From Candidatus Saccharimonadota bacterium (GTDB taxonomy: Bacteria > Patescibacteriota > Gracilibacteria > UBA4473), in assembly GCA_965228485.1 (NCBI GenBank), contig OZ245819.1, positions 450,001-482,000 on the forward strand: a DNA stretch of 32,000 bases. The letters are read 5' to 3'. The notes below the pieces were generated by a model. It was not told the origin of the DNA, made no database searches, and saw only the letters and a list, made by a program, of their open reading frames with translations. A program made the translations under genes and the position numbers. Position 1 is the stretch's first letter; every line of letters begins with the position of its first letter. Of this stretch, positions 685-19,021 are shown piece after piece.

Positions 685-2808
685 ATGAACCCCGCTTTAA
701 CTTTTGGTATCGCCTGCACATTATACTTTTTAATTGCTTCTTTTGTAATTCGAGAAGAGGTGAATCCCAGAAATCTTAGCTTTACCACCTTTATTTTAGG
801 ATGCCTACTTTGGACGGCAACGCTCTATATTTACTTCTTTCTACCCTTAGGAGAGCTTCTTTATCCTATCGGTAAACTGAACTATTCCGTAGCATTGTTG
901 ATACCATTAGGCTTACTCTGCTTTCTTTATTACTTTCCTCAAAAGGCTTTTCTTCTCCCAAAAAATAGTATTCCATTATTAGTTGTTAGCACGACAATTT
1001 TATTTTTAATAACACAATTCACGCCACTCATTATTGAAAATGAAATCTATGGTGAAGAGGGTCCAGAAGTCATACTTGGCCCAATATATGATAGTTATAT
1101 TATTTATTGGCATGTTCTAATTCTCGCTTCCGTTATTCTTGGTTTTATTAAATATAGAAAGCTTAAGAAACTTCAAAAACAAAACTTTGCCTGCATCTTC
1201 TATGTGTCAAGTGTATGCACCTTATTAATGCTATTTTTCAATGGAGTTCTCCCAAAATTTGGAATATTTATTGCTCAACAATATTCATTTTTACTAATGC
1301 TTCCGATTGCGGTGGTAAGCTTCTACGCGTTTATTAAATACCAGTTCCTCAATATTAAGCTTACAATCTCAAACAATACAAAAACATTTTTTGCACTATT
1401 AATTTCTAGTGGTTTTGTAAGCTTCCTCTATTTTCATAGTGCTCCGTTTCTCAACCCTTCTTGGGAGCCAACTATTTTTATTTTCTCAATTATTGTTGCT
1501 ACTTTTATCTACAAAGAAGCCATAAAATTCTTTAATTCTGATATTTTCCATGCTTACTTCTGGATTACCAATGAAGAGTATTTGAAAAACATTATCAACA
1601 ACTTCAAAAATCAAAACAAGCGATACACATCTATTGAAACACTTGAGCAAGAATTGATCGAAAGCTTTAGTGGCAAATTCAAAATCTCTCCAGTAAAGGT
1701 AGTTATCTTTAATAAAAAAAACGAGAAAAAATATCATTCGTTGATAAATCTATTCAATACTCTTGGGATTCATAGAATCTTCTATAAAAAGGATAAACAA
1801 CTAAAATTGCCCAAGGAAGCTTCTAGGCTAGGAACTGTAATCGTCCCCCTTTCTACTCCTGATCATAAAGTTGTTGGAGCCCTTATCTTAGGAAAGAAAA
1901 TACTAGAAGATACTTATGGTAATTATGAATTAAAACTCATTGAATCGTTTAGACCTTACCTCAATCTTCAAACTACCAATATTCTGTACAATGCAGCACT
2001 GAAAAAAGAGGTCAAAGAAAAGACGAGCCAATTAGAGAAGAAAAACAAACAACTGGTTACCTTCTCTAATAAACTTAAAAAACTCGACGCGGTAAAAGAT
2101 GAATTTCTTTCTATTGCCTCTCATGAATTACGAACACCACTGAGTATTATTAAAGGGTACGCTGATATCTTAAGGCTCCAAAACTTTGGAAACCTCAATA
2201 AAAAACAACTCGATTTCACTGATAAGATTCTTGCTAATACGAATGACCTCGTCTCGCTTATAAACAAAATGCTAGATATAAGTCGACTTGAATCAGGGCA
2301 AATGGGTTTTAATAATCAAAAAATTGACCTTGTAAGCTCTATAAAAGAAACCCAAAAAGCCTTTAAGGTGATGTATAAAGAGAAGAACCTTTCTCTCGTT
2401 TTTTCTAATCCCGAAAAGTTAACCCCAACCGTTTTTCTCGACAATGAAAAACTCGGAATAATCTTCTCTAATTTACTTGGAAATGCCTATAAATTCTCAC
2501 CCAAAAATAAAACTGTAAAGATTATTTTGGAATCTGTAGAAAAAGAGAAAAAAGTAAAAATTACTATTAAAGATCAAGGAGTTGGTATTCCAAAAAACAA
2601 ACAATCTTTAATATTTAATAAATTCCAACAAGCAGAAAACCCTCTTCAAAAAGCCCATGCAGGAAGTGGTTTAGGTTTAAATATAACACAACAAATTATA
2701 GAAAAATTCGGCGGAAAGATATGGGTTAAAAGTGAAGATCACATTAAGTCTGGTAGTGCTTTTATTTTTACACTTCCTTACACTCAAAAAAAATCCAATA
2801 GTAAATGA
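685..2808 (+). CDS. membrane-bound sensor histidine kinase (polytopic N-terminal domain + HisKA + HATPase_c)
   Basis: 707-aa ORF. The first ~270 aa are a series of hydrophobic helices. H-box FLSIASHELRTPLSIIKGYADIL, N-box LLGNAYKFSP, G1 DQGVGIP, G2 GSGLGLNI. Its TGA stop overlaps the ATG of the next gene (ATGA at 2805..2808). Confidence 0.9.
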   Translation: MNPALTFGIACTLYFLIASFVIREEVNPRNLSFTTFILGCLLWTATLYIYFFLPLGELLYPIGKLNYSVALLIPLGLLCFLYYFPQKAFLLPKNSIPLLVVSTTILFLITQFTPLIIENEIYGEEGPEVILGPIYDSYIIYWHVLILASVILGFIKYRKLKKLQKQNFACIFYVSSVCTLLMLFFNGVLPKFGIFIAQQYSFLLMLPIAVVSFYAFIKYQFLNIKLTISNNTKTFFALLISSGFVSFLYFHSAPFLNPSWEPTIFIFSIIVATFIYKEAIKFFNSDIFHAYFWITNEEYLKNIINNFKNQNKRYTSIETLEQELIESFSGKFKISPVKVVIFNKKNEKKYHSLINLFNTLGIHRIFYKKDKQLKLPKEASRLGTVIVPLSTPDHKVVGALILGKKILEDTYGNYELKLIESFRPYLNLQTTNILYNAALKKEVKEKTSQLEKKNKQLVTFSNKLKKLDAVKDEFLSIASHELRTPLSIIKGYADILRLQNFGNLNKKQLDFTDKILANTNDLVSLINKMLDISRLESGQMGFNNQKIDLVSSIKETQKAFKVMYKEKNLSLVFSNPEKLTPTVFLDNEKLGIIFSNLLGNAYKFSPKNKTVKIILESVEKEKKVKITIKDQGVGIPKNKQSLIFNKFQQAENPLQKAHAGSGLGLNITQQIIEKFGGKIWVKSEDHIKSGSAFIFTLPYTQKKSNSK

Positions 2809-3185
2809 GTTCCTCAAAAAAAATCCTCATTATCGAAGATAACGAAAGCTTAAAAGATTTGTACTTTATGGCCTTCTCATCTCGGGAATTTGATGTTGAG
2901 CAGGCTAAGGAGGGATTAGAAGGCATAACCAAAGCTGTTGAGTTTAAACCCGACATTGTTTTACTCGACCTTATGATGCCAAACATGAGTGGTTTTGAGG
3001 TCTTAGACGCCATCAATAAAAACTCATCTCTTGATACAACTGTTTTTATCGCCAGCAACCTGACGGACAAAAAAAATATTAGTGCAGCTCTGGACAATGG
3101 GGCCGTTTATTTTTTTAAAAAAGCAGAATACACTCCAGATCAAATTGTGGAAAAGATCTTAGATTACATAGCTATCGAACTTTAA
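2805..3185 (+). CDS. single-domain response regulator (REC only, CheY-like)
   Basis: 126 aa. KILIIEDNE acidic pocket, phospho-acceptor Asp in DIVLLDLMMPNMSG, no output domain. Translationally coupled to the kinase. Confidence 0.85.
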   Translation: MSSSKKILIIEDNESLKDLYFMAFSSREFDVEQAKEGLEGITKAVEFKPDIVLLDLMMPNMSGFEVLDAINKNSSLDTTVFIASNLTDKKNISAALDNGAVYFFKKAEYTPDQIVEKILDYIAIEL

Positions 3186-4552: not shown

Positions 4553-5245
4553 ATGATGAATACTAAAGAAAAATCAGGATCAACTCCTGGGTTAGATTTT
4601 GAAAAATACCCAGACAAACTTATCCCCACGGTCGTTCAAGAAAACCAAACTGGAAGAATTCTTATGGTTGGTTTTGCTGACCAGGCTGCCGTGGATAAAA
4701 CCCTTGAATCTGGATTGGCTACGTTTTGGTCTCGAAGCCAGAAAAAAGCTTGGACCAAAGGCTTAACCTCAGGTGATACCCTTAAAGTTTCTGAGATAAG
4801 AACTGACTGTGATAACGACACGCTTATTTATCTCGTGGATATGGAAGGCAAAGGAGCCTGTCACATTGATGGATGGGTTACCTGCTTTCGCCGAAGAGTT
4901 AGTTCTACAGGTCAGATAGAGGAAGTTGAGGATATTCCGACCTGGAGTCGTTTCGACTCCGAAGAACAAGCGATTATTGAAGCTCGTTCAGAAGCTGATC
5001 CCAAACAATCTTTTACCGCTAAAATGGCACAAAGTAGTCTTGAAAAAATTGCAGGGAAGATTGCCGAAGAAACGGCTGAAGTATTGAAAGCCGTCCAAAT
5101 GGGCGAAAGGCGAGAAAGAATTATTTCCGAATTGGCAGACTGTGACTATGTTTCTCGAATTTTACTCGCAAAAATTAACCAAATGATAGAAGAACCCATC
5201 TCTATCATAGATATTGAAGAGGCTGTTATTGCCCGAAGAAAATAA
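4553..5245 (+). CDS. hisIE: bifunctional phosphoribosyl-AMP cyclohydrolase / phosphoribosyl-ATP pyrophosphatase
   Basis: The N-terminal half has the HisI signature: LIPTVVQE...WSRSQKKAWTKGLTSGDTLKV..IRTDCDNDTLIYLVDMEGKGACHIDGWVTCFRR (Cys/His metal site). The C-terminal half is MazG/HisE-like: IAGKIAEETAEVLKAV ... ELADCDYVSRILLA. Confidence 0.85.
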   Translation: MMNTKEKSGSTPGLDFEKYPDKLIPTVVQENQTGRILMVGFADQAAVDKTLESGLATFWSRSQKKAWTKGLTSGDTLKVSEIRTDCDNDTLIYLVDMEGKGACHIDGWVTCFRRRVSSTGQIEEVEDIPTWSRFDSEEQAIIEARSEADPKQSFTAKMAQSSLEKIAGKIAEETAEVLKAVQMGERRERIISELADCDYVSRILLAKINQMIEEPISIIDIEEAVIARRK

Positions 5246-5246
5246 C

Positions 5247-5278
5247 AAAAAGAGGCGCCAGGTGGCGCCTCTTTTTTT
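5247..5278. terminator. bidirectional intrinsic terminator between convergent hisIE and atpA
   Basis: Perfect 9-bp GC-rich stem agaggcgcc (5251..5259) / ggcgcctct (5264..5272), 4-nt loop. Flanked by an A-run on the left and a T-run (to 5278) on the right. Confidence 0.85.
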
Positions 5279-5298
5279 ATATTGAAGTGGACTATCTG

Positions 5299-7056
5299 TT
5301 ATAGAGCTCCAACTTCTTTGATAATATTTGATCGAATTTTTTCGTATCCAGCTTCATCATCAGCTTTTAGTTCTTTACATCGAGCAATCTCTTGAATCAC
5401 TGGCAGTTCTTCTACTTTAGAGAAATCGAATTCCTCACGATCAACAAGCTTCATTCCTTCGTGGTAAAGAGCCACGATAGTTTTTAGCATTTCATATTGT
5501 TTCTTTGGAATCGTGTAAGCGTCCTCTGGATCAAAAGAATCTTGGTATAGGAAATCTTCTCGAATAGATTTAGACACAAGAAGTACTAGTTTTTCTCGAA
5601 CAGAAAGTGCATCTGGTCCAACCAATCGTACAATTTCTTGAAGTTTAGATTCTTCTTGTAGAAGTGTCAGCCCTAGCTCTCGAATATCCCAGTAATCTTC
5701 TGCAACATTTTCTTTGTTGAATTTCTCAAGATTTGGTGTGTATAGAGAGTAAGACTTCAACCAGTTAATCGCTGGGAAGTGACGTTGGTAAGAAAGCTTA
5801 GAATCAAGTCCCCAGTATACTTTTGTCACTCGAAGTGTATTTTGAGATACTGGCTCAGAAAGATCCCCTCCTGGAGGAGAAACCGCTCCGATTACCGTTA
5901 GAGATCCTGTTCGTCCTTCTGTCCCTAGACATTCAACCGCTCCAGCTCGTTCGTAGAATTCTGAAGTTCGTGAACCAAGGTAAGCTGGATAACCTTCTTC
6001 CCCTGGCATTTCTTCTAGACGTCCTGACATTTCCCGCATAGCTTCTGCCCATCGAGAAGTAGAATCGGCCATTAATGCTACGTTGTATCCCATATCTCGG
6101 TAGTACTCAGCAATCGTAATTCCTGTATAAACCGAAGCTTCACGAGCCGCTACTGGCATGTTTGAAGTATTGGCGATCATTGATGTTCGTTTCATCAATG
6201 GCTCACCACTATTTGGATCAATAAGATGTGGAAATTCATTTAGTACTTCCGTCATCTCATTCCCTCGTTCTCCACAACCGATATAAATAATTACTTGTGC
6301 ATCACAGTATTTGGCAACCGTTTGTTGAGTCACTGTTTTTCCAGAACCAAATGGTCCAGGGATACATCCTGCTCCTCCTTTCGCTAAAGGGAAGAACATA
6401 TCTGTTGATCTACATCCTGTTCGAAGTGGTTCATTTGGTACAATTTTTCCATTAACTGGACGAGCCACTCGGATTGGCCAGAAGTGTCGAAGTTGAACTT
6501 TCACTTCTTTACCATCAGCATCGAGTATCGCAATATCATCCGTTACTTTAAAATGTCCTGATTCAATAGATTTTACTGTCGCTTCTTTCACGCTGGGTGG
6601 AACCATCACTTTATGGAGAATCAGTGTTGTTTCTTGTACGGTTCCTAGTGTGTCCCCTCCTTTAACTGTATCTCCAGTAGATACGGTTGGAACAAAGTCC
6701 CATTTTTTAGTTTGATCTAGTCCTGGAGCATCAATCCCACGAGCGATAAAATGCCCTGATTGTTCCTCAATTGATTCCAATGGTCGTTGAATCCCATCAT
6801 AGATAGTTTCAAGAAGACCAGGACCAAGCTCTACTGATAGAGTTTGTCCTGTAGTTTTTACTGGTTCTCCTGGACCAATACCAGCCGTTTCTTCATAAAC
6901 CTGAATGTAGGCCTGGTCATCATTAAGTCGAATTACTTCTCCAATAAGTCCCTCTTTACCAACACGAACTACTTCGTACATCTTGGCATGAGACATGTTT
7001 TCAGCAACCACAAGTGGTCCTGATACTTTAATGATTACGGGTTGTTTTTCGCTCAT
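5299..7056 (-). CDS. atpA: V/A-type ATP synthase catalytic subunit A
   Basis: 585 aa. Walker A GPFGSGKTV; typical A-subunit N-terminus (VSGPLVVAENM..MYEVVRVG), non-homologous insert and C-terminal helical domain. Confidence 0.95.
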   Translation of the reverse strand: MSEKQPVIIKVSGPLVVAENMSHAKMYEVVRVGKEGLIGEVIRLNDDQAYIQVYEETAGIGPGEPVKTTGQTLSVELGPGLLETIYDGIQRPLESIEEQSGHFIARGIDAPGLDQTKKWDFVPTVSTGDTVKGGDTLGTVQETTLILHKVMVPPSVKEATVKSIESGHFKVTDDIAILDADGKEVKVQLRHFWPIRVARPVNGKIVPNEPLRTGCRSTDMFFPLAKGGAGCIPGPFGSGKTVTQQTVAKYCDAQVIIYIGCGERGNEMTEVLNEFPHLIDPNSGEPLMKRTSMIANTSNMPVAAREASVYTGITIAEYYRDMGYNVALMADSTSRWAEAMREMSGRLEEMPGEEGYPAYLGSRTSEFYERAGAVECLGTEGRTGSLTVIGAVSPPGGDLSEPVSQNTLRVTKVYWGLDSKLSYQRHFPAINWLKSYSLYTPNLEKFNKENVAEDYWDIRELGLTLLQEESKLQEIVRLVGPDALSVREKLVLLVSKSIREDFLYQDSFDPEDAYTIPKKQYEMLKTIVALYHEGMKLVDREEFDFSKVEELPVIQEIARCKELKADDEAGYEKIRSNIIKEVGAL

Positions 7057-7085
7057 TCTTACAGCTTTAAAAATTGTTGTGGATT

Positions 7086-7145
7086 AAATCACGCGGATTC
7101 TTCGCAATTTCATCAAAATGTCAACGCTTTGCGACATTTTTTTTT
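7086..7145 (-). promoter_or_regulatory. atpA promoter module (copy of the atp operon promoter)
   Basis: Read on the minus strand: A9 (7145..7137), N12, TTGACATTTT (-35 at 7124..7119), 16-nt spacer, AAGAAT (-10 at 7102..7097), then CCGCGTGATTT. The 16-mer AGAATCCGCGTGATTT (7101..7086) is identical to 19037..19022, with identical spacing to the -35 and to the A-tract. Confidence 0.6.
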
Positions 7146-7181
7146 AGAATATCAAGCAAAGCATAAAACCTATGCAAAAAA

Positions 7182-7210
7182 TTGACTTTTTACAAAAAAA
7201 ATTATAATAT
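7182..7210 (+). promoter_or_regulatory. candidate promoter of the giant-gene pair
   Basis: TTGACT (7182..7187), 17 nt, TAATAT (7205..7210); alternatively TATAAT (7203..7208) with a 15-nt spacer. This implies a near-leaderless mRNA if the ATG at 7219 is used. Confidence 0.4.
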
Positions 7211-7218
7211 GATCTGAT

Positions 7219-10200
7219 ATGAAAATTTGGTTGGCCAACCATAATACAGAAAAACATTTTCCGAACACTCATAAAGTGTTTCGGAACGTTCATCAAATGA
7301 GTGACGATCCTGTTGATCAGCAGGTTAGTCGCTTGGCTGAAGATGTAGAAGCTCGTGTTCCTATCGAAACGGAAAAGTCTTATACTGAAACCTTCGCAAC
7401 AGTTGTAGCCCTATCGGTAGAAGAAACCATGCGTAGACAGGTGCAAGCTCCAGGCTCAACCGATCTAGAAGCTACTTATCGTACAGATTCACTAACAGAC
7501 TTTGGTGGTTTAGATCGAAAATTCTTTAGTAGCAAATGGTGGCTGACGAGTCTCTTTAACTCAAGAGCCCCAATGATGGAACTTTCTGAATTAAGAGATC
7601 CTCAAGGGAACCTTATCCCTGCTGAACTTTTGAAAGCTTCACCATACGCTCGATCTCAAACAGATGCTGCACTACTAGATGAAAGTTATAGTGGAACTTT
7701 ATCAGCTCTTAGAGCCAATGATGTCAAAAGAGACAACGTAACTTTAGCGAGCTTGGACTTTGTAGACGCTCTATTTCATGGAATTGAAGTTCCCGCTAGT
7801 AGTAGCGAACTTCTCAGACAATTAGGAGAAATCCAAGGATTGGGAAATGAGATTGTCACCGATATTCAACAGTTTGAGGCGCAACTTGCAAAACTTAGCA
7901 GCCGAGAACTCTGGAGAGAAATCGTGAGTTTCTTGCTTATCGCTCAAGAACCACGAGCAAAACTCATTAAATGGATTATCGAGCGACAACATGATCAAGG
8001 ATGGGCAGAAACTCAAGATATATTTACTTCGGCAAAACTAGAAAAAGGTCGTCAAATCCGAGCCTGGAATAATAATATTCGTCAATTCATTGCTCGAATT
8101 GACAGAACTGGGGATGATGCGGCTAAAGAAGATTTCTGGGCGCTCATCAGTTACGCCTCTCAAAACCCTACTGGTTTTGTAGCGAATCCAAACCTTGTCT
8201 TTGGAAATGTAAATTGGCAGCAGTTATCAGGATGTCCGAGTGCTATCGATTTTCTAGATACTATTAGACATAGTTCTATAGAAGGTTTGAAATTTATTCC
8301 AAACCGTTCTGGAAGAGATGGTATTACCGAATTTGAACCAGATGCTCCAAGAGCACGATATAGCTTGGTAGAGATTGCAGCTCATATGCAAGAAATGTCT
8401 CGTTTTGACGTGGCACTACAAAAATTGTTTGAACAAACCGATACAAGAATCACCCAATTCCAACAACTTTTCCGAAATACTGATTACTTTGATCTCTATA
8501 CGGAGCTAAACAATGAAATTGAAATGTCGGAAGAAGGCTCTATCGAGCAAATGCCAGACCTAAGGCAGCTTGTTCAAGATATTTCTACTTCTCTGAATGA
8601 CTGGCAGATTGGAATCAATGTAGAGAATACAATCTTCCAAGGAGTTGATCCTCGTCAATCTCCAGAAGAAGCTTTTTCTTTAATTGTGGATTATCTTAGC
8701 AGAAACCCAAACATTAGAGCTCTTCTAGATAATGATATTAAAAGACGAATCCTACGATATATTCACCTCATTGATGAAAAAGTAGAGGCAGATGCCCCAT
8801 CTGGAGCCGAAAACGAAGAAAACACCTTAGAAATAAGACACCGAATTCTTCGAATGGCTAAAATTACGCTCGAAAGAGCTCGAAGTTTAATTCAGCAAAT
8901 CCGAAGTGGAGAAATAAATAGAAAACTAAAGTCAAATGATGGTCAAGAATTCCAAAGAATAATGACCCAAATTGGGCAACTCATTGCCAGTTTTGATGAA
9001 CTTACCATTCACTTGGACAGAACCAACGACTCTGGGCATAAACTAAGAGATCGACTTCCAAAAGATGAAGCTGGAATTATTGAAAATGTAGAAACCTTAA
9101 AAGGATTTCGAGATGCTTTGTTTAGTTGGATAGGCACTATTCCAGGGGAACGAAATACGTATCTCACTACTTACCTAAACAACTTAGCCGATGAAGATGT
9201 GATTCAAGGCTATGAAAGAGCCGAACGAGAACTAAGAGATGCGATTATTGGCAATCTTACTAAAATAGATCAGATTAAAAGTGATTTAGAAACATTGAAG
9301 CAACTAGCACAACAGCAGGGAGCACAAAACATCCCAGTACAAGAAATTGACACTTTACTAGCCCAACTCGCAGTAGTTTCTGGAGCCGCTAATACTGGAG
9401 CTGTCCCAGGAGGAGGAATCTCATTGTCAGCTGAAGCTGAAAGAATTGAAGAAAGTGCACAGAAACTTATCGAAACCTACCAAGAGAATATTGTCAGATG
9501 GCGAAATGCTAAACATGGGGCTGCAGGGTTTGCTTTTACTATGCCAAAAATTGCCGAATTTGAATACGAAAGAGTAGATGACTATATTCATTTCTTAAAC
9601 GAAAGGAGAAGAAATCTCGAAGCGAGAAAACCAGCACTGTCCCCAAACCGAAGACCCAGAAGACAAACGCCTCAATCTATTGCTCAAAAGTTCAATGACA
9701 ACTTTTATCGAGAGTTTGCTAAAAGATCTCAAGATAATGCCCGAGATAAAATTTTCATGCCAAATTTTGAACCCATAAACAGACGATTATGGGAGTATCT
9801 AGAATCAATGATCCCAGGATCAAAAATTGGAAAATTGACGCTTACAAATGCAACCCATCAAAGCAAACTAAACTATCCAGGACATATACGAGACCGTGAA
9901 TATGTAAGAGACCTAACCATTATTGGAAATCGAACCATTGAAACCGAATCAGGCCCCCAAGAAGCGGTTATTCTAGAAGCTTTTGATCAAATATTATACG
10001 TCACACGTCCAACAGCAGGGGCTCAACAACCCAATATTTACAAATACGAAAAACACCCAAGCGAACATGGCGCCACCGCGAGTAACACCAACTTCAACCA
10101 AACTATGCTCGACTATCGTTTGGCGGGTTATATGCTTAGTGCTTATCCAGAAAATTTAGATGCTCCCAGCACTCTAAATAATCCTCAAAATAGACCCTAA
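7219..10200 (+). CDS. large orphan protein (993 aa), mostly helical/coiled-coil with a beta-rich C-terminal module
   Basis: Uninterrupted 2.98-kb ORF with protein-like composition. No signal peptide, TM helix or P-loop. Alternative start at M27 (nt 7297, MSDDP...). It shares N- and C-terminal motifs with the next gene (see findings). Confidence 0.8.
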   Translation: MKIWLANHNTEKHFPNTHKVFRNVHQMSDDPVDQQVSRLAEDVEARVPIETEKSYTETFATVVALSVEETMRRQVQAPGSTDLEATYRTDSLTDFGGLDRKFFSSKWWLTSLFNSRAPMMELSELRDPQGNLIPAELLKASPYARSQTDAALLDESYSGTLSALRANDVKRDNVTLASLDFVDALFHGIEVPASSSELLRQLGEIQGLGNEIVTDIQQFEAQLAKLSSRELWREIVSFLLIAQEPRAKLIKWIIERQHDQGWAETQDIFTSAKLEKGRQIRAWNNNIRQFIARIDRTGDDAAKEDFWALISYASQNPTGFVANPNLVFGNVNWQQLSGCPSAIDFLDTIRHSSIEGLKFIPNRSGRDGITEFEPDAPRARYSLVEIAAHMQEMSRFDVALQKLFEQTDTRITQFQQLFRNTDYFDLYTELNNEIEMSEEGSIEQMPDLRQLVQDISTSLNDWQIGINVENTIFQGVDPRQSPEEAFSLIVDYLSRNPNIRALLDNDIKRRILRYIHLIDEKVEADAPSGAENEENTLEIRHRILRMAKITLERARSLIQQIRSGEINRKLKSNDGQEFQRIMTQIGQLIASFDELTIHLDRTNDSGHKLRDRLPKDEAGIIENVETLKGFRDALFSWIGTIPGERNTYLTTYLNNLADEDVIQGYERAERELRDAIIGNLTKIDQIKSDLETLKQLAQQQGAQNIPVQEIDTLLAQLAVVSGAANTGAVPGGGISLSAEAERIEESAQKLIETYQENIVRWRNAKHGAAGFAFTMPKIAEFEYERVDDYIHFLNERRRNLEARKPALSPNRRPRRQTPQSIAQKFNDNFYREFAKRSQDNARDKIFMPNFEPINRRLWEYLESMIPGSKIGKLTLTNATHQSKLNYPGHIRDREYVRDLTIIGNRTIETESGPQEAVILEAFDQILYVTRPTAGAQQPNIYKYEKHPSEHGATASNTNFNQTMLDYRLAGYMLSAYPENLDAPSTLNNPQNRP

Positions 10201-10244
10201 AATACTAGTAAAAAAACTAATTTTATGGTAAAATATCAGGATTT

Positions 10245-13200
10245 ATGAAAAATTTCTGGTATTTGGAGTCTGAAAAACAAAGAACTGATGTCAATCGGTT
10301 TGTTTTTATGACCGATAGTCCAAGAAATGTAAACCGTCGAACCGATGAGCTTATTGGCGATGATATGGCGGAAAAAGTTGAAGCTAGAATGCTTGCTGGA
10401 GAGGCCTTAAGTGAATTAGATGATCACATTTCCAAACAGCTCACCGTAAAAACACACTATGGTTCTCCTCTTAGGCTTAGAAATGATCGTGGTGATACCA
10501 TCAGAGGATTAAGACAAGGAGAGGTTGTTACTTTTACGGGAGAAACAAAAATTACAAAAGATGCTAATGGGCAGGTAAGAGATACAGACGGTGACGGAAG
10601 TCTTAACAATCGTCATCTCTGGTTTAAAGTTAGAACAAGTTCAGGAGAAACTGGATGGGCGTCTGCTGAATATCTACAAGGCTCACTGAGTGCTCCCGTT
10701 ACTACGACTGAAGAACCTCTCGGGCCAGATAACAGTGTTATCCTAGCACCAGAAGAGCCTGAAGCTACTGAGCCACCCGCTCCAACAGAAGCTCCCGAAG
10801 AACCTTTACCAGACACCATAACCTTTACAAGTCTTCCTGGAGCAGCTGATAGAGCCTTAAGACGAGATATTGAAAGAAGAAGAACTACCGAAAGAACTTA
10901 TGAACGAGCACTTGATAGAGAACCTATTCCAACAAACGGAGAAACGGTTTCTCGAGCTGAGATGATTGCCAGTAAGGATTTTCAACAACATATTGATACT
11001 ATTTCACAACAAACTGGACTTCCACCGGAAAGAGTCCAGTCTATTATTAGTGACTTAGGCGTTCATCATCTGAGTTCTCCTGAGCAAATTACACAAGCGC
11101 TAGACCGCGCTGGGAGACTTCATGGTGAAGACGCATCGAAAGTACTCGATTCTCTAGCAAGAATTCCTGAAGCCGCTCAATTTTTGGTGGCTTTCAAACA
11201 TCCAAATGTGGTGAGATTTTTAAAGGGATCGGCGGTCTTTGGAGGGGTAGCACTACATACCACCTTCTGGAGCCGAATGGCCTCTGCCCCAGATTTGCGT
11301 TGGGATGGAGCCACACCAGTGACGGGGAATTCTGTCATTGATACGGGAAAATACTTTATCCCAATTGTCGGTAATGGTTTTGATTTTACCGATGCCTGGA
11401 CTGAAGCAAAACGAGGAAATATTGGATGGGCGGCTTTTAATGTCGCTACTGGAACTGTTGGTCTTGTTTTAGATGTCTTCAGTATTGTTACCGCGCCAAC
11501 AGTCGCTGGACCTGTGGCAGGACAATCTGCAAAAGCTGGATTCAAAGCCAGTATGAGAACCTTCAAATTATGGGTTAAAAGTGGTGGAGCTAAAGCCATG
11601 GCAACTCAAGCTGGAGAATTTATCGCTCGAAACACCGCTGGTGTCAGAGAAAGTCTTGGAAATTTTGCCTCTTGGGCTGGAAGACAAGCTTCGGGTATTG
11701 GAAATGCCATTTCAAACTCCCCTGTTGGTCGAGTAGCCTCAAGTGTTGGAGAAGGACTGGCTAGAGGTAGAGCTAATATTGGAAAAATTTGGGGGGTTCG
11801 ACACGCCGACAATTACATCCGTGGGATGGAAGAAGCTGCTACAGCAAATTTAGCCACCGCAAAAGCTGCCGATACTTCATTCCTTGGAAAGGCTGGAAAC
11901 TACCTTGCTTATGGAGCACGAGAAACGGTTTCAAGTCTTTATAATATTTTGACCTTTAAAATTCTTAATAGTCCTAAAGCCGCTAATGCTGCTTATGACG
12001 CTGCTCGAGTAGATCCTGAAAAGACAGAGACCGAGACAGATTCTGGAAAGATTGAAAGAGTCGCGGACGGAGTTGATATCCAAGGCAAAACGGTCCGTGC
12101 TGGTGATAAGCTTATCATTAAAGATTTAGAAAATGGACCCGCTAGAGCTAATGGACAAGAAATCATCATTGATAAAATTGAAGATGGACAAGTCTTTAGT
12201 CACTCTCCTGGATTTGATAAACCCAATCCCCCGTTTAAAGTGGACGATTTAAATGATCCAGCAAAATTTGAAGTTACTTTCCCTCGAATTGAAAAACTAA
12301 AGGAAAGTCTACAAAGAGCCAAAGATGAAGGGAGCGAAAAACTATCTGCCCTAGAGGACTCACTAAAAACTGAAAGAGACAAAACTCATCATGATTATTT
12401 TAGTGGTCGAAATATTGATCGACTAAAAACTGAAATTGAAAAAAACCAAGAAATTTTTGATGCAAAAGTTAAAGAATTTGAAACAAAAATTACTGAACTC
12501 GAAGCGAAACATAATGAATCAGAATCTGGACGACTCGCTAGTAAACCAGAGGTAAGGCAACTCATTCAAGATATAGAAAGAGAACGAGAAGCTTTTGTAA
12601 AAAGACAAAATGATAAATACGACGAAGTTCAACAAGAGATTGAAGCAGGAATAAGATCTCGAGAAGCAGAAGAGGCAGAGCTATCTAAATTTAATAAAGA
12701 AATTGAAGCTCTAAAGAATGACCAGCCTTCTGTTTTTAGAAAAATTATGGGAAAACCTAAAACTCCAGAAGCTAGACAAGCAGAAATTGACCGTATATAT
12801 AAAGAATCAATTGAACCAATGTCAGCTCGACTCGGAGAAGAAGTACCGGAAAAACCAGTCGTTTATGAAGACCCACTTGATGTGACTGATCTTGATACAA
12901 AACCTGAAAAATTAGATATAACCGACAAGGAGTTTAAACTAAAATGGGGCGATAGTGAATGGGTAGAAGTTAAAAGAAATAAAGGACGTAAAAATAACCC
13001 TGACACCATTACCGTCACAGAAATTAAGGAAGGGCCTCAGGCAGATAAAACTATTCTCACCATTGAATATGGTAAAAGTGGAGAAGCTGAATTTGGTGGT
13101 CGAAAAGTAAAATTTGCTGTTGATGAGGATGGAACTATCTGGGTTAATTCACTTGATAAACCAAGAACAAAAGTAGACGACGATCCTGATCCTCAACCTA

Positions 13201-14132
13201 GAGACAAAACCGACGAAGCAGAACCTGATAAAACTGAAGCTGATGACACTACTCCAGATAAACAAGATAGCGATCCAGAAGATACCGATACTCGTGAAAG
13301 AACTGATGATGAACCTGAGCCACGTGATCGAGAAAGACGGGATGAACCAGATCAGCCTGAACCAAAAAACTCTACGCCTCTGCGAAACTTTGAAATGAAC
13401 TATGAACATCTCAGTCGTAATGTTTTTGAACTTAAAAATACTCGACACGTTACGCTGAATGATAATTTTGGTAATACCCTTTTCCGAATAAGAGTTGGTG
13501 AAAAAAATGGTCTACTAATTCGAAGTCAAGAAGTTGGCTACAGCAAAAGCGAACAAATGCAGCAACCGACTGGAGAAAATATTACTCGTGAGTTTATTCG
13601 AGAGGACGGAACGAGTATTAAGATTGAATACCGAACGGATGGTAAATTCTTCATCGAAAAAATAGGTGAGAACAATACAGGGAAAGATAATACTACTCCT
13701 GATCGTCGAGACACTCCTGACCGTAAGGATGAAAAGAGAGATGACAAAGGAGAAGAGAGAGATAGAACTTTAAATCCTGATGATCCATTAAGTACTAAAT
13801 GGCCTTCTGAGTTATTTGCCAACCGAGGAGATATTGGACACTTGAGAACGTCTAGAATGAAACCTAATGCGGTCTATGAAGTCCAAAGAAGCCGAGAGCA
13901 AGAATTCCAATTACAAACATCCGAGGATAAATCTGCACGAATTAAATTAAGAACAACAGAAACGGGTTTAGAAGTTGAATATCTAAGAGGTTACGATGGA
14001 CCTAAGGACATCACGGAAATACCACCAGGACCAGGACATACCTTCCGAGTGGATGACAATACCTCTATACACATAAAAGTAGAACCAAGTGAAACTGGTC
14101 CAAATGTAATTTTAGAAAGAATTGACAATTAA
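10245..14132 (+). CDS. giant orphan protein (1295 aa): SH3b-like domain, P/E linker, hydrophobic Gly/Ala-rich region, long coiled coil, three beta-rich modules separated by acidic linkers
   Basis: Uninterrupted 3.9-kb ORF starting 44 nt after the previous gene. SH3b-like LRLRNDRGDTIRGLRQGEVVTFTGE...LWFKVRTSSGETGWASAEYL (nt ~10440..10682). Alternative start at M22 (nt 10308, MTDSP...). Its TAA stop overlaps the atpF stop. Confidence 0.8.
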   Translation: MKNFWYLESEKQRTDVNRFVFMTDSPRNVNRRTDELIGDDMAEKVEARMLAGEALSELDDHISKQLTVKTHYGSPLRLRNDRGDTIRGLRQGEVVTFTGETKITKDANGQVRDTDGDGSLNNRHLWFKVRTSSGETGWASAEYLQGSLSAPVTTTEEPLGPDNSVILAPEEPEATEPPAPTEAPEEPLPDTITFTSLPGAADRALRRDIERRRTTERTYERALDREPIPTNGETVSRAEMIASKDFQQHIDTISQQTGLPPERVQSIISDLGVHHLSSPEQITQALDRAGRLHGEDASKVLDSLARIPEAAQFLVAFKHPNVVRFLKGSAVFGGVALHTTFWSRMASAPDLRWDGATPVTGNSVIDTGKYFIPIVGNGFDFTDAWTEAKRGNIGWAAFNVATGTVGLVLDVFSIVTAPTVAGPVAGQSAKAGFKASMRTFKLWVKSGGAKAMATQAGEFIARNTAGVRESLGNFASWAGRQASGIGNAISNSPVGRVASSVGEGLARGRANIGKIWGVRHADNYIRGMEEAATANLATAKAADTSFLGKAGNYLAYGARETVSSLYNILTFKILNSPKAANAAYDAARVDPEKTETETDSGKIERVADGVDIQGKTVRAGDKLIIKDLENGPARANGQEIIIDKIEDGQVFSHSPGFDKPNPPFKVDDLNDPAKFEVTFPRIEKLKESLQRAKDEGSEKLSALEDSLKTERDKTHHDYFSGRNIDRLKTEIEKNQEIFDAKVKEFETKITELEAKHNESESGRLASKPEVRQLIQDIEREREAFVKRQNDKYDEVQQEIEAGIRSREAEEAELSKFNKEIEALKNDQPSVFRKIMGKPKTPEARQAEIDRIYKESIEPMSARLGEEVPEKPVVYEDPLDVTDLDTKPEKLDITDKEFKLKWGDSEWVEVKRNKGRKNNPDTITVTEIKEGPQADKTILTIEYGKSGEAEFGGRKVKFAVDEDGTIWVNSLDKPRTKVDDDPDPQPRDKTDEAEPDKTEADDTTPDKQDSDPEDTDTRERTDDEPEPRDRERRDEPDQPEPKNSTPLRNFEMNYEHLSRNVFELKNTRHVTLNDNFGNTLFRIRVGEKNGLLIRSQEVGYSKSEQMQQPTGENITREFIREDGTSIKIEYRTDGKFFIEKIGENNTGKDNTTPDRRDTPDRKDEKRDDKGEERDRTLNPDDPLSTKWPSELFANRGDIGHLRTSRMKPNAVYEVQRSREQEFQLQTSEDKSARIKLRTTETGLEVEYLRGYDGPKDITEIPPGPGHTFRVDDNTSIHIKVEPSETGPNVILERIDN

Positions 14133-14482
14133 CCGAGGATATCACTTCCAACCGCTCGTTCTACAATCTTTCTCATTCGATTTGCGGCAAAGTTATCGTC
14201 TCCAGACTTTGAAGATGGTACCGGAATTACCGCTGGTAGTGGTTTTCGAGCAAATCTCTCAATCACATCTTCTGAAAAGTTTTTGTAGTAATCTTCTTCA
14301 ACAAAAAGTACCGCATATTCTGCTGTTTTTGCTTCGTCCCCTTTATTCGCCATAAAAAGTTCTTCCGCTTTTTCTTGCGCTTCATCTTGAGTGTACACTC
14401 CGTAAGTTTCACATCCAAGGGCTCGGTAGATTAGTACCGAACTTACATTCCCGACAACGGCTAATTTGTATTCCTCAGACAT
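14129..14482 (-). CDS. atpF: V/A-type ATP synthase subunit F
   Basis: 117 aa. KLAVVGNVSSVLIYRALG, AVLFVEE, PAVIPVPS, KIVERAVGSDIL match the NtpG/AtpF pattern. Confidence 0.85.
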   Translation of the reverse strand: MSEEYKLAVVGNVSSVLIYRALGCETYGVYTQDEAQEKAEELFMANKGDEAKTAEYAVLFVEEDYYKNFSEDVIERFARKPLPAVIPVPSSKSGDDNFAANRMRKIVERAVGSDILG

Positions 14483-14483
14483 G

Positions 14484-15491
14484 TTAGAGTCGTTCTAAAA
14501 GATCATAAATTTGCTCCGAAGTAAGACCATTAAACTTACCGTACATGATCAATTTCAAAACCTGAGCATTTCTCATTCTTCTTTCGAAGTAATTGATCAA
14601 TACCGCTAGTCCTGGTCCAGAACCAAGGGACTCCCATTTAAGGAAGTCATAGTAATATCTATCTAGTTCTCTTTCAATCGCATAAATAGAGCCGACTGGG
14701 TCATCTTTATCAATTTGTTCTGCGGCTTTGTTAAACTTCGTTCGAAGCATATATTTCGAAAGTTCATCAGCACTGTGAACTCTCTCTACCGCGTAGTAAG
14801 CTACATTCCCTCCTGTGATCCAAGTTTCTTTTGGCACTTCCGTTCCTCGAATCAAAACACATCGAGACAGATTTCGGAAATTCACTCTATCAATCCAGTG
14901 TCGCACAAGTTTTTGTAGGAAATGGTCTTTTACTCGCTCATTTCTTAAGTCCATGAAAAATTCTCCCATAGCTTTATCGAGAGCAAACTCAACCGCTAAG
15001 AAATTATCGGCTTCTTTGTAAATATTTTCAGCCTGCTCTACCACAGCATAAATTGTAAAAGGGATGCGTCTATGAGTATGACCACCAAAGACAACCTCTT
15101 CCAATTCTTTTTGGCTCAACATTGCCAGATTAGAGTACCCTTCGTTTTCAGAAAAAGTTTCAATCCCCGTTTTGCCTTCAAGAATTTTAGCCTTTAGAGC
15201 TCGTTTGATGTTGTTTATATCAAACTGAAGCCAAAGGAATCTTAACCCTTCATCATTCTCAGATCCTTTCATCAAAAGATCTTTTGTTTCAAAGAGACCT
15301 TGTCTAATAATTGTATAAAAATCTTTTACCGTTGTTTCTTCATCAATAAACTCTGCGTAATTTGATTCTACCAAAACTCGAAAAGCTTCTTCTGGAGTTT
15401 CGGCTCCAACCATTCGATCAATCTGAGCTTGGTTTAACAACCGAGACTCTTGTGCTCGAACCTGACCGGATACAAACGAAAAATAAGGCAT
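14484..15491 (-). CDS. atpC: V/A-type ATP synthase subunit C (eukaryotic d-like)
   Basis: 335 aa helical protein. Position between E and F in the operon, with size and pattern typical of AtpC/NtpC. Confidence 0.8.
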   Translation of the reverse strand: MPYFSFVSGQVRAQESRLLNQAQIDRMVGAETPEEAFRVLVESNYAEFIDEETTVKDFYTIIRQGLFETKDLLMKGSENDEGLRFLWLQFDINNIKRALKAKILEGKTGIETFSENEGYSNLAMLSQKELEEVVFGGHTHRRIPFTIYAVVEQAENIYKEADNFLAVEFALDKAMGEFFMDLRNERVKDHFLQKLVRHWIDRVNFRNLSRCVLIRGTEVPKETWITGGNVAYYAVERVHSADELSKYMLRTKFNKAAEQIDKDDPVGSIYAIERELDRYYYDFLKWESLGSGPGLAVLINYFERRMRNAQVLKLIMYGKFNGLTSEQIYDLLERL

Positions 15492-15494
15492 ATT

Positions 15495-16052
15495 TTAAAC
15501 AAGCTTCAATTGATCTGTGAAGTACATTTCAAGTGGTTGTTTGTACTCAGAGAAGACCAAATTTTTAAATGAGTTATCAATCTCCATTCCATCAGCAACA
15601 CAGACAAAACCTCCTTTGATATCATTATCTGCTTTAACATCGAAATCCTTCCCTAATAAAGGTTTAAGAACTTCAACATCAGCTTTTGCTGCACGAACAC
15701 TTCCCTTTTCAACTCCCATTTGAGTAATTTGAGCTTTAAAGATAGTCGTCTTTGTCTCGTTATCAGCTATCACTAGAGCTTCAAAGAATTTTTCCATTGC
15801 TGCATCTAAAACTGCTCGACGAGCGCTCAATAGAGCTTGTCTATTTTCTCGCCGAGCCATAGTATCAATTTTAGTGTCCACAGCTTCTAGAGCTGCTTCC
15901 GTTTTAACCTCAAGCGCTGCTAATTCTTCTTTTCTTGAAACTTTCGCTTTTTCAGAAACTTCTACTTTATCTTTCTCTAGTTGAACTTGAATTTCAGCAA
16001 TACGAGCTTCACTTTCTGCTTGAATTTTTTTGATGATATCTTGCAACGCCAT
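15495..16052 (-). CDS. atpE: V/A-type ATP synthase subunit E (peripheral stalk)
   Basis: 185 aa. N-terminal long charged helix (LQDIIKKIQAESEARIAEIQVQLEKDK) plus a globular C-terminus. Operon position fits. Confidence 0.8.
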   Translation of the reverse strand: MALQDIIKKIQAESEARIAEIQVQLEKDKVEVSEKAKVSRKEELAALEVKTEAALEAVDTKIDTMARRENRQALLSARRAVLDAAMEKFFEALVIADNETKTTIFKAQITQMGVEKGSVRAAKADVEVLKPLLGKDFDVKADNDIKGGFVCVADGMEIDNSFKNLVFSEYKQPLEMYFTDQLKLV

Positions 16053-16085
16053 GATTAATTTTTTCTAATAAATTTTAATTGGAAA

Positions 16086-16556
16086 TTAGATTTGCACTGC
16101 ATTAGCAATTAGAAGTGCAACCAGTAGACCGAAAATAGCGTAAGTTTCTACTACCACCGCTAGAACGATCGCTTTACCTGTAAGACTTTCATCTCGAGCC
16201 ATAGCTCCAATACCAGAAGCTACTACTTTCCCTTGAAACCATCCAGAGAAAAGACCAGCCAATCCCATAAGGATTCCTGCCCACATGAATTGACTTCCTG
16301 CTTCTACTGCTACTTCTGCTCCTCCTCCAAAGAATCCGATCTTAGAAAGAACAAAGATAGCGATAAGAAGTCCATATACTCCTTGAGATCCTGGAAGGGC
16401 CGATAGGATCAAAATTTTACCGAAAAGGTGTGGTTTTTCAGCAAGAACTCCTGCACCTTTAGCCCCAGCGGCTCCAATACCGATTGATGATCCTGCTCCT
16501 CCGAGAACAGCAGACATTGCAGCTCCGATAACTGCGAGAACGATTCCTGATTCCAT
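16086..16556 (-). CDS. atpK: V/A-type ATP synthase proteolipid subunit K (4-TM, duplicated c)
   Basis: 156 aa. Aligns by eye along its whole length with Enterococcus hirae NtpK as I recall it: ALPGSQGVYGLLIAI, GLFSGWFQGKVVASGI, VVVETYAIFGLLVALLI. Confidence 0.9.
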   Translation of the reverse strand: MESGIVLAVIGAAMSAVLGGAGSSIGIGAAGAKGAGVLAEKPHLFGKILILSALPGSQGVYGLLIAIFVLSKIGFFGGGAEVAVEAGSQFMWAGILMGLAGLFSGWFQGKVVASGIGAMARDESLTGKAIVLAVVVETYAIFGLLVALLIANAVQI

Positions 16557-16641
16557 GATTTTTTGTGATTAAAAATTGAAAATTTGTCGGGCGAATTTTT
16601 TGTAATTTAAGTAAATTGTCAACCCATTTACCTAACTTTTT

Positions 16642-18663
16642 TTATTTCTCTATATTTAAGTATTTGTGTTTACGAATAAAGGGATCAAACTTTGTTCCCC
16701 CACCTTCGTAAAACTTGCCAAAGAACTCAATAAATTGGAGACGTCCAGAGTGGATAAAAGCCCCCAATAGAGAAAGTCCAAAGTTTAAGGTATGACCAAA
16801 AAGGATAACAATCGCCCCAATAAGAATTCCAAGTGTCCAATGAGGCATCATTCCGCCGAGAATCCCAGCGGTCATATTCATGGCAAAACCAACTACTCCT
16901 GTAGCCAATCCTAATGCCATAATACGGGAATAACTTAATAAATCTGAAAGATACGAAGTTGAATTATAAAGACTGATAAGTCCAAATAGTGGCTTCAAGA
17001 ACCATTTAACATCAGCAATAATTGCCTGTGAAATAAACAACACTAGTGCTGATAGTTTTGCTAGGTTTGTCATCATGGCCTTATCTAGTCCAGTGGCCGC
17101 TGCAACTGGCTCTACTGAAGAAAGCCCAAAAAGCACAAGTGATCCAATAAAGAAGAACCAAGCTCCTGAATTAAGCACCGCACCATTATAATCTTTATTT
17201 GATAGTCGTTGGAAGAAATCAATAACTAACCCCGTTAGTAGTTGAAGTGCCCCCAGACCAAGAGCTACGCTCAAGAATAAGATTGGCCCAGACCCTTCCA
17301 TAGGATTTAGAAGCTGCCCGTAAAATTGTCCCGTATTCGGATTCACCAACCAAGAAAGCTGATCGGTTGTAAGTCCAAAGTGTCCCCCAAGAATTACTCC
17401 TCCAATAAAAGCTGAAATTCCACAGAACAGTAGTAGTAAAAGTGAATCTTTGGCAGCCTTCCCAAATTTCCCAAAGATCAAAAACCACGTGGCTACTAAA
17501 ATAAGAATTGAACCATATCCAGTATCAGAAAGACAGAGTCCAAAGAATACAAAAAAGAATGGCATAATAAAAGGCGTTGGATCAAACTCCGTCACCTTCG
17601 GAAGTCCATACATCTCAACTACCGGTTCAAAAGAACGAATCCCCCACTTATTACTCAATAATACTGGTGGTTCTTCATCTTTCTCTGGCTTGATTTCTTC
17701 AAGGCTCACTTCTCCAACAAAAATATTCTTAATCCATTTTTTCAGATCAGGCAAAGCACTAGAAAGTGCCCATGCCTCAAAAGCAAAAACTTGATCTGAT
17801 AGGTAAATCTTTTGCTGAAGATCGTTTTTGGTCTTTCTCCATGAATTGAAATCAAAAAGAATTTTTAAATCTTCGATATTAACGGTTAACTTTTTAACTC
17901 GAGCTTCCAGTTCTTCTCTTTCCTCCTGATAATCAACAAGCTGCTTATCCAATTCTCGAACGATAGTTTTAATATTTTTTCCTTCAAAATCCCCAAACTC
18001 TTGACCAAGATTAATCGGTTCAAAAGCGTATTTAGATACAATTCCTTGAGTCTGAGTTTTAAGCTCATTCCAAACCGTCAATCGCACAAAAACAATCTTC
18101 TTGAGACGTCCAAGAATTTTAAGATCTACTAAGTTGGATTCTGAAGACACTTCTTGTTGGAAAGCTTCAAACTGCTCTCCTGGGATCTTCCCAATCCATG
18201 TAGTTGTTTTTTCTGTAGCATAATCCGCATTAATGGTTGAATCGAATTGACCAAGCGTATCAAGTAATCGTTTTTTTACTGGAATACTATCAATTTCGTT
18301 TTTTACCCGAACCAACCGATCTTCGATCTTTTCACACTCTTCAATAATTTTTTCAGATTTTGGAGCAAAGTTTTTCAATCGATCTTTTGCTGCATCCTCA
18401 GAGAGTACTAGTTTTCCTCCAGAGAGAATAGACTCAATCTTAGAACCTGGAGTTGCGAATGGAGATAGAAATTCTAGAGCAAACTCAATCCGAGCTAAAT
18501 CAAAAACTCCGAAGTGATCATCATACTCTTTTTTTGACTGTTCAACGAACTCTGAATTCTCCACAACCTGAAGTGTTCCACTTCTGTGAAGTTCTTGCAT
18601 CAAAATTTTATAATGGGATTTAAATCCCGTAATCCGAACTTTTTTCAGCTGTGCCTTGGCCAT
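16642..18663 (-). CDS. atpI: V/A-type ATP synthase subunit I (stator a-subunit)
   Basis: 673 aa. Soluble coiled N-terminal half plus a polytopic C-terminal half ending ...SYSRIMALGLATGVV...HSGRLQFIEFFGKFYEGGG. The ATG directly abuts the TAG of the upstream gene. Confidence 0.9.
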   Translation of the reverse strand: MAKAQLKKVRITGFKSHYKILMQELHRSGTLQVVENSEFVEQSKKEYDDHFGVFDLARIEFALEFLSPFATPGSKIESILSGGKLVLSEDAAKDRLKNFAPKSEKIIEECEKIEDRLVRVKNEIDSIPVKKRLLDTLGQFDSTINADYATEKTTTWIGKIPGEQFEAFQQEVSSESNLVDLKILGRLKKIVFVRLTVWNELKTQTQGIVSKYAFEPINLGQEFGDFEGKNIKTIVRELDKQLVDYQEEREELEARVKKLTVNIEDLKILFDFNSWRKTKNDLQQKIYLSDQVFAFEAWALSSALPDLKKWIKNIFVGEVSLEEIKPEKDEEPPVLLSNKWGIRSFEPVVEMYGLPKVTEFDPTPFIMPFFFVFFGLCLSDTGYGSILILVATWFLIFGKFGKAAKDSLLLLLFCGISAFIGGVILGGHFGLTTDQLSWLVNPNTGQFYGQLLNPMEGSGPILFLSVALGLGALQLLTGLVIDFFQRLSNKDYNGAVLNSGAWFFFIGSLVLFGLSSVEPVAAATGLDKAMMTNLAKLSALVLFISQAIIADVKWFLKPLFGLISLYNSTSYLSDLLSYSRIMALGLATGVVGFAMNMTAGILGGMMPHWTLGILIGAIVILFGHTLNFGLSLLGAFIHSGRLQFIEFFGKFYEGGGTKFDPFIRKHKYLNIEK

Positions 18664-19002: not shown

Positions 19003-19021
19003 ACTTTTATGCTTAAAAAAC

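Follow-up and report, generated by a model that had tools for sequence, protein, structure and literature searches.

The 32 000-nt stretch of DNA analysed here (hereafter the window; contig OZ245819.1, assembly GCA_965228485.1, a Gracilibacteria lineage in GTDB) carries two very large adjacent genes, P1 and P2, which sit between atpA and atpF on the strand opposite to a V/A-type ATPase cluster (Table 1). An earlier note on this DNA, made from the letters alone, had placed two open reading frames (ORFs) here with a 44-nt spacer, and on re-reading both indeed run from ATG to TAA, encoding 993 and 1295 aa. We now report that the pair belongs to a conserved gene module, that P2 is a member of a modular family in which predicted peptidoglycan-binding domains appear to be interchangeable, and that the P1 and P2 families share a short N-terminal leader. 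Our tentative reading is that P1 and P2 form part of an assembly, specific to this lineage and working in the envelope or in host interaction, that relies on a non-Sec tag. The locus devotes 6.9 kb of a 1.3-Mb genome, on a contig of 1,295,315 bp, to two proteins of rare, unannotated families, neither of which is described in the literature that we searched.

Table 1. Features of the P1–P2 locus, in window coordinates
Feature	Position	Strand	Basis or remark
V/A-ATPase subunit A (atpA)	5299..7056	-	Pfam; divergent from P1
P1 promoter-like site, TTGACT-17 nt-TA(T)AAT	7182..7210	+	Promoter scan; ends 8 nt before ATG
P1 ORF	7219..10200	+	993 aa, ATG...TAA, one Cys
P1 leader, aa 1–31, MKIWLANHNTEKHFPNTHKVFRNVHQMSDDP	7219..7311	+	Divergent copy of the module leader; alignments and hidden Markov model (HMM) searches
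P1-family C-terminal motif AGYMLSAYPEN (G[IY][FM]L[TS]A.PEN)	10123..10155	+	P1 alignment
P2 extended -10, TGGTAAAAT (10226–10234), and AGGATT	10226..10243	+	Ends 1 nt before ATG
P2 ORF	10245..14132	+	1295 aa, ATG...TAA, zero Cys, modular
P2 leader, aa 1–26, MKNFWYLESEKQRTDVNRFVFMTDSP	10245..10322	+	P1-leader HMM E = 0.078; decoy p = 5.5e-4
NVNRxTD...DMAE..E motif	10326..10388	+	Invariant in the SH3-bearing P2 subfamily; no counterpart in P1 orthologues
SH3b-like domain, aa 66–148	10440..10688	+	Pfam SH3_3, 24.1 bits, E = 4.3e-5, cut-off 27
Acidic Pro/Glu-rich linker, aa 151–190	10695..10814	+	Read from sequence
Family core, aa ~235–470	10947..11654	+	Profile search and alignment; includes YF.P..GN..D[FY].DA (11352–11396)
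Sole hydrophobic segment, aa 393–426	11421..11522	+	Gly-rich, invariant Asp410; acidic N-flank, K/R-rich C-flank
Second family motif (K/R)ET..S.YN.LTFK, aa 558–572	11916..11960	+	Alignments
Probable coiled coil, aa ~680–870	12282..12854	+	Weak SMC, ATG17 and LmuB matches only
C-terminal ~120-aa domain, aa 1177–1295	13773..14129	+	Common with P0011 (43% identity, E = 2e-23); contains PGH... (14031–14126)
TTAA tetranucleotide	14129..14132	.	Overlapping stops of P2 (+) and atpF (-)
V/A-ATPase subunits F, C, E, K, I	14129..18663	-	Pfam

A word-based homologue search covering 5.8 billion proteins retrieved only P1 itself, whether with P1 or with the P1 family profile as the query, and a single relative of P2, P0003; exact look-ups of both proteins in the contig index gave no match. 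P0003 adjoins a 983-aa protein that is a full-length, weak homologue of P1 (22% identity over 497 aa, E = 3e-4), and the genes that follow this homologue (atpF, C, E, K and I, a DUF805 gene and an MFS-HEAT gene) are arranged as they are in the window. The loci compared below come from a genome scan (L003 and L004), a metagenome scan (L009 and L010, its only yield, from a species already represented) and look-ups of distant matches (L012 and L013). Five further lineages carry P1 and P2 together (L009/L001, L003, L004, L013 and L012), usually with two additional genes, p852 and p141, which bears out the earlier proposal that the two genes form one module. As in the window, the module is flanked by atpA and atpF in L009, L004 and L013, while in L003 a contig end leaves only the atpF side visible. 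The order p852 (~790–860 aa), p141 (~140 aa), P1 orthologue is invariant in L009, L004 and L013, with the P2 orthologue before or after these three. In L012 a P2-like gene, p863, p139 and a P1-like gene adjoin prfA, and the module thus exists outside the ATPase context. The p852–p141–P1 triad in its fixed order spans 3862–6847 in L009, 14099–16896 in L004, 4742–7764 in L012 and 14126–16935 in L013, and p852 proteins end in a conserved ...AIITN[ML].[VI]L.

P1, which has no hydrophobic segment, belongs to a family of ~985-aa proteins, as judged from full-length co-linearity, an MKFL-type leader, the motifs NP..F[IV].NP and G..L.A.PEN, and position in the module; its pairwise E-values against relatives are 3e-4 and 5e-3, and its orthologues are syntenic in L003, L004, L009, L012 and L013. 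The earlier note had called both genes orphans. P1 has no Pfam, NCBIfam, PHROG, PADLOC or PDB match, and P2 has only its sub-threshold SH3_3 match; P2 is not strictly an orphan, however, since its modular family occurs in other genomic contexts, often without P1. PADLOC and PHROG models gave no match to either protein beyond coiled-coil noise (LmuB, 14 bits).

We define the P2 family, which is unnamed and unannotated, by the core at aa ~235–470, of which we aligned 13 relatives that carry it; P0011 matches at E = 1e-62. When 1.84 billion representatives were searched exhaustively with a profile, 30 proteins came back at E ≤ 1e-3 and the modular organization became apparent: some relatives, including P0009, P0012 and P0021, match only the N-terminal ~185 residues of P2, and others only the core region at aa ~235–520 (P0010, P0011, P0013, P0015–P0020, P0023, P0029 and P0030). 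P2 itself has the core with YF.P..GN..D[FY].DA, followed by the Gly-rich hydrophobic segment with its Asp and its K/R flank. The core has no relative in Pfam or PDB. The domain that precedes it is swapped among members, being LysM in P0010 (29.4 bits), PG_binding_1 in P0018 (46.1 bits) and a sub-threshold SH3_3 in P2; SH3_3 is also sub-threshold in the relatives that carry it (16.8–20.5 bits in the L004 P2, P0009 and P0012). Further acidic, Pro-rich linkers lie at aa 978–1042 and 1151–1180 of P2, and C-termini vary across the family, comprising a GT9 glycosyltransferase (P0017), unrelated beta-rich modules and repeats.

Hydropathy over 14 members finds one hydrophobic segment, with an invariant Asp, an acidic stretch before it and 5–8 Lys/Arg after it. 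Under the positive-inside rule, which is established knowledge, positive charge on the C-terminal side would place the N-terminal half of P2 outside and its C-terminal two-thirds in the cytoplasm. GT9 glycosyltransferases are expected to work in the cytoplasm on nucleotide sugars, so that a peptidoglycan-binding domain outside and a GT9 domain inside would be consistent with such a topology. In agreement with the earlier note, simple scans found neither a Sec nor a Tat signal (P1 lacks a hydrophobic stretch altogether, P2 lacks one over its first 390 residues, and [ST]RR.[FL] occurs in neither), and no P-loop: the sole P-loop-like match, GVDIQGKT in P2, was rejected as a functional P-loop because the region varies between orthologues.

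The leader common to the P1 and P2 families is ~30 residues long and reads MK[FI][LF], 9–12 residues, [RK]-aromatic-x-[YF], 3–6 residues, then [DEN][SNDQ]P. The N-terminal 26 residues of 12 P2-family proteins gave a leader HMM, which was searched against the first 32 residues of 472 ORFs from 14 loci; four P1-family proteins rank next after the P2 members (E = 0.0011, 0.0023, 0.032 and 0.042), the best background ORF having E = 0.28. With the reciprocal P1-leader HMM, the next matches are P0016 (E = 0.016), the window P2 (E = 0.078) and the L004 P2 (E = 0.42). Compared with 20 000 decoys made of "MK" and shuffled real N-termini, the observed leader scores have p = 1.5e-4 to 1e-3. The leader is wholly absent from P0013 and from the p852 proteins of L009, L004 and L013. 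The p863 protein of L012 starts MK...GRFLY, which is leader-like but not significant (E = 1.6).

This leader retains part of a larger claim, namely that the two proteins carry a common N-terminal tag and related termini. The shorter element at the extreme N-terminus, which includes D[DS]P, stands; the longer motif as originally aligned does not. By BLASTP the N-terminal similarity has E = 3, and the aligned stretch is not kept in orthologues; in a post hoc Smith–Waterman shuffle test of the first 60 residues, the window pair gave p = 0.0025 and the pairs of three other species p = 0.31, 0.04 and 0.50. The supposed C-terminal relatedness is not listed by BLASTP, reaches p = 0.07 over the last 124 residues and is absent from P1 orthologues, among which the P1 stretch in question, ESGPQEAVILEAFD, is not conserved; the C-terminal domain of P2, made into a profile, finds no match in the P1 family (probability 0.06–0.12%). 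Nor are P1 and P2 paralogous partners, the hhalign probability being 0.07% with four-species alignments and 0.2% with six P1 sequences. The best BLASTP match between them (P1 409–455 and P2 729–777, E = 0.001), which falls in the coiled-coil region of P2, was rejected as homology since it is unconserved in P1 orthologues. Small beta-modules shared by the C-termini of P1, P2 and p852 were considered and likewise rejected, with hhalign E-values all at least 0.011 and probabilities below 4%. The P1 and p852 families, by comparison, align with a probability of 66% (E = 5.6e-5, 232 co-linear columns; E = 0.42 for the reversed control), and P1 is therefore likely a distant paralogue of p852, and not of P2.

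The earlier note had further suggested that Met codons at 7297 and 10308 might be the true starts and that one promoter serves both genes. Neither Met is conserved; the conserved N-termini, MKF[LV]... in all P1 orthologues and MK[FI]L... in P2 orthologues, lie at positions matching 7219 and 10245. Each gene also has its own promoter-like site, conserved in orthologues and 8–10 nt upstream of the conserved MK start. The P1-type promoter precedes every P1 orthologue, even within the 34-nt p141–P1 spacer, and a TTGACTTTTT..AAAAAA..TATAA block is found upstream of the P1 orthologues in L003, L004, L009, L012 and L013. Upstream of P2/p852-family genes in six loci (L003, L004, L009, L012, L013 and L016) stands TGnTAWAAT-N3-4-RGATT(T)n, possibly the hallmark of jointly regulated genes or a start-site element peculiar to the lineage; with both its -10 hexamer and its RGATT part, the pattern occurs once in the window. 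No Shine–Dalgarno sequence is found at the P1 or P2 start, and the P2 mRNA would have a very short 5′ untranslated region without one. In the divergent intergenic region at 7057–7218, a block GCGGATTCTT..AATT...AAATGTCAAC is conserved in L009 and L004; on the minus strand it reads TTGACA-16-AAGAAT and is likely the atpA promoter.

Between species, atpA is 81–92% identical, as compared to 23–50% for P1 and 26–68% for P2. Near-identical strains differ in P1 by 10 synonymous and 3–5 non-synonymous changes, a ratio of non-synonymous to synonymous polymorphism (pN/pS) of ~0.1, so that the strong selection postulated in the earlier note is visible at short range as purifying selection. Taken together, the synteny, the identity pattern and the pN/pS ratio indicate that the genes are real, selected and fast-evolving. 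The two families diverge several times faster than the adjacent housekeeping genes, as proteins at the host or competitor interface often do. P1 and P2 together contain one Cys in 2288 residues, as compared to 0.65% in the other window proteins (binomial p = 5e-6), and the orthologues of P1, P2, p852 and p141 are Cys-poor in all four families; such depletion would fit extracytoplasmic proteins or proteins exported unfolded.

The reading that we favour, which we hold to be possible rather than probable, is of a rapidly diversifying module in a small clade of reduced-genome Gracilibacteria-like bacteria, other members of which add p852 and the small helical p141 to it. P2 would be a single-pass membrane protein that serves as a membrane-anchored, peptidoglycan-binding scaffold, with its leader, SH3b-like domain, acidic Pro-rich spacer and juxtamembrane core outside and its long coiled coil and variable C-terminal modules inside the cytoplasm. 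P1 (elsewhere with p852) would be its physical partner, large, mostly helical and without a membrane segment. The leader may act as a recognition element, either for a non-Sec export or assembly route or for a common docking partner. We consider unlikely the bolder proposal that the leader is a new class of targeting or assembly signal, and that P2, P1, p852 and p141 build an undescribed trans-envelope structure by which the bacteria hold on to peptidoglycan, either their own or that of a host, with this anchoring coupled to variable cytoplasmic or delivered modules.

Several observations weigh against an envelope assembly with a non-Sec tag. The dedicated export or targeting route raised in the earlier note is compatible with the shared leader, but neither export machinery nor a cognate transporter was identified in the window or the related loci examined, and translocating a charged N-terminal region of ~390 residues without a signal peptide would be unusual. 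The leader statistics are modest, the four P1 matches being orthologues and not independent, and the P2-leader HMM does not retrieve the P1 leader of the window itself. The SH3 assignment lies below the Pfam threshold, and its structural support is not significant: for the SH3b region, the best PDB matches of the family profile are SH3 domains at E = 0.5–0.7, and the best Foldseek match of the low-confidence P2 model, at E = 0.03, is the SH3-containing YrvJ-YacD integrative model (9a7d), with none at E ≤ 1e-3. Predicted models allow no fold inference, either for P2 aa 1–600 (4-row alignment, pLDDT 36.1) or for P1, which is mostly alpha-helical in a low-confidence single-sequence model (pLDDT 38.8). 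The window encodes no p852 or p141 homologue, and many P2-family genes occur elsewhere without P1, for instance next to integrase and resolvase genes (L011), rpoB, eno and dnaN-mfd-dnaA.

It is also conceivable, though rather unlikely, that the locus is a polymorphic or mobile effector cassette, in which P2-family proteins would be horizontally exchanged effectors, with a conserved N-terminal half for trafficking and a variable C-terminal half as payload for host or competitor, and P1, p852 and p141 would be delivery accessories or chaperones. Polymorphic toxins and polyvalent proteins of conjugative elements and phages have a conserved N-terminal half, highly variable C-terminal modules and a mosaic evolution. 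The P2 family resembles them in its conserved N-terminal half, in the wide variation of its C-termini (GT9, beta-rich modules and repeats), in its incongruent identities (the L009 P1 is closest to that of L004, and the L009 P2 to that of L003), and in the LysM-bearing P0010, whose neighbours on the 7.5-kb contig L011, possibly a mobile element, are a phage-integrase fragment, a resolvase gene and, to either side, small helical ORFs. Small helical proteins are encoded beside P2-family genes in both L011 and L017, and an HMM search places them directly behind the p141 family (E 0.15–0.39); the Cys depletion of the module proteins and their shared leader would also suit effectors. Yet no recognizable toxin domain was found by Pfam or NCBIfam in P1, P2 or their relatives, nor any known immunity, MuF or secretion-linked domain in P2, and the downstream neighbour in the window is atpF. 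The P2 core gave no tblastn match in phage and plasmid collections, the chromosomal position is stable across species with 81–92% atpA identity, and the K/R-rich flank fits a resident membrane anchor better.

P1 and P2 could instead be unrelated neighbours, their leader likeness reflecting an initiation constraint of Shine–Dalgarno-less, AU-rich, near-leaderless mRNAs (AUG AAA UUU), in which case the finding shrinks to two lineage-specific hypothetical proteins. Promoters that end 1–10 nt before starts without a Shine–Dalgarno sequence are as such a constraint would have them, MK[FI] is simply AUG AAA UUU/AUU, the P2-leader HMM scores the P1 leader of the window weakly, and hhalign shows nothing past the leader. 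We nonetheless judge this improbable. The [RK]-aromatic-x-[YF] strand is encoded by differing codons, which implies that conservation acts on the peptide; the leader keeps p = 2e-4 to 0.017 when decoys have MKFL and composition fixed; of the 22 other genes in the window, just two begin with MK, and the pattern is in neither; and the pair co-occurs in the five further lineages.

Mycoplasma terminal-organelle proteins contain acidic Pro-rich and coiled-coil regions, and by analogy P1 and P2 might form a cytoplasmic scaffold or attachment-organelle-like cytoskeleton, with P2 tethered to the membrane from inside. The reduced genome, the coiled coil and acidic Pro-rich linkers in the C-terminal two-thirds of P2, the lack of signal peptides and the mostly helical P1 (in the low-confidence model) are all in keeping with this idea, which we find quite improbable given that the interchangeable SH3b, LysM and PG_binding_1 domains point to peptidoglycan contact, that the proteins are Cys-depleted and that the charge asymmetry puts the N-terminal half outside. 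No sequence similarity to terminal-organelle proteins was detected, and the peptidoglycan-binding-type domain of P2 makes a purely cytoplasmic role less likely. Finally, the chance is very remote that P1 and P2 assist or regulate, as its partners, the V/A-type ATPase whose operon they break up, for although they lie between atpA and atpF in the window, L009, L004, L013 and (atpF side only) L003, overlap atpF convergently at the stop codons and have in P2 an invariant membrane-embedded Asp, and although the gene for P0012 (tag and SH3, without the core) also abuts atpF convergently, they are on the opposite strand with promoters of their own, diverge far faster than the ATPase subunits, stand beside prfA in L012 and have P2-family kin beside rpoB, eno and dnaN elsewhere. 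Because the module and the P2 family also occur elsewhere, their place within the ATPase cluster seems to reflect an old insertion that synteny has preserved, and not a functional link.

The envelope or host-interaction assembly that we tentatively propose can be set beside several known systems. Reduced-genome Gracilibacteria, part of the candidate phyla radiation (CPR), are thought to be attached to other cells, and hardly any of the proteins responsible for this attachment have an annotation; the bacteria that carry the P1–P2 module are possibly epibiotic, and the P2 architecture, the four-gene module and the candidate leader offer starting points on how an envelope is built without classical signals. 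Like Gram-positive surface proteins and endolysins, the P2 family combines an interchangeable SH3b-like (sub-threshold), LysM or PG_binding_1 module with a linker, but the module of P2 comes without a catalytic hydrolase domain or signal peptide and is N-terminal to the membrane segment. Type III-like and double-glycine leader/PCAT secretion substrates share an N-terminal signal, and P1 and P2 resemble substrates of such dedicated secretion in that they are large, encoded together and otherwise unrelated, yet carry a common short element at the N-terminus that is conserved; their leader fits no known signal class, having no hydrophobic h-region, twin arginine or conserved GG cleavage site. Predatory and epibiotic CPR bacteria, such as Vampirococcus lugosii with its ~1.3-Mb genome, encode lineage-specific giant surface or membrane proteins for which a role at the cell surface or in host interaction has been proposed (PMC8080830). 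P1 and P2, likewise very large and lineage-specific, are likened to these giants by description and not by sequence: the Vampirococcus giants have WD40, PKD, integrin and fibronectin domains and a predicted membrane localization, whereas P1 has no recognizable domain, P2 has only the sub-threshold SH3b-like one, and both are without a signal peptide.

The V/A-ATPase cluster of the window is split, with I, K, E, C and F and a 119-aa coiled-coil ORF (18664–19023) on one side of the pair and a lone atpA on the other; downstream of atpA there is no atpB or atpD, and hisIE and hisG come next. The cluster is broken in this way in L004, L009 and L013 as well. The TTAA in which the P2 and atpF stops overlap is a palindrome, and no terminator-like site lies between these convergent genes, where transcriptional interference is possible; a similar convergent overlap with atpF, of 9 nt, is found at the P0012 locus. 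Compared to the window (14484–16052 region), atpC identity is 72.5% in L003 and 37% in L010, atpE identity 41–47%, atpA identity 81–92% and atpF identity 68–88%, and this uneven divergence of stalk subunits points to recombination in the peripheral stalk or to a constraint that has been relaxed there.

Some Gracilibacteria read UGA as a sense codon. We rejected such a code for the window in favour of the standard one: two ORFs terminate at TGA (in one case within an ATGA overlap of the usual kind), and table 11 leaves all long genes, the housekeeping ones included, uninterrupted. Neither the Rfam nor the tRNA scan gave a match in the window. In L013 a T4SS_pilin (PF18895) gene at 5016–5393 is flanked by ilvN and hisG and lies upstream of the module by 4.6 kb; the window has no counterpart between its response-regulator gene and hisG among the ORFs of at least 80 aa that were scanned. 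On the far side of the ATPase cluster, an 804-aa MFS-like transporter fused to HEAT repeats (19608–22022) adjoins a DUF805 membrane protein, and both neighbours are kept in L001 and L010. Near the start of the window (685–3185), genes for a stand-alone receiver and for a histidine kinase whose N-terminal region is of the 7TM type form an ATGA-overlapping pair, an unexpected regulatory outlay for a 1.3-Mb genome that retains hisG and hisIE.

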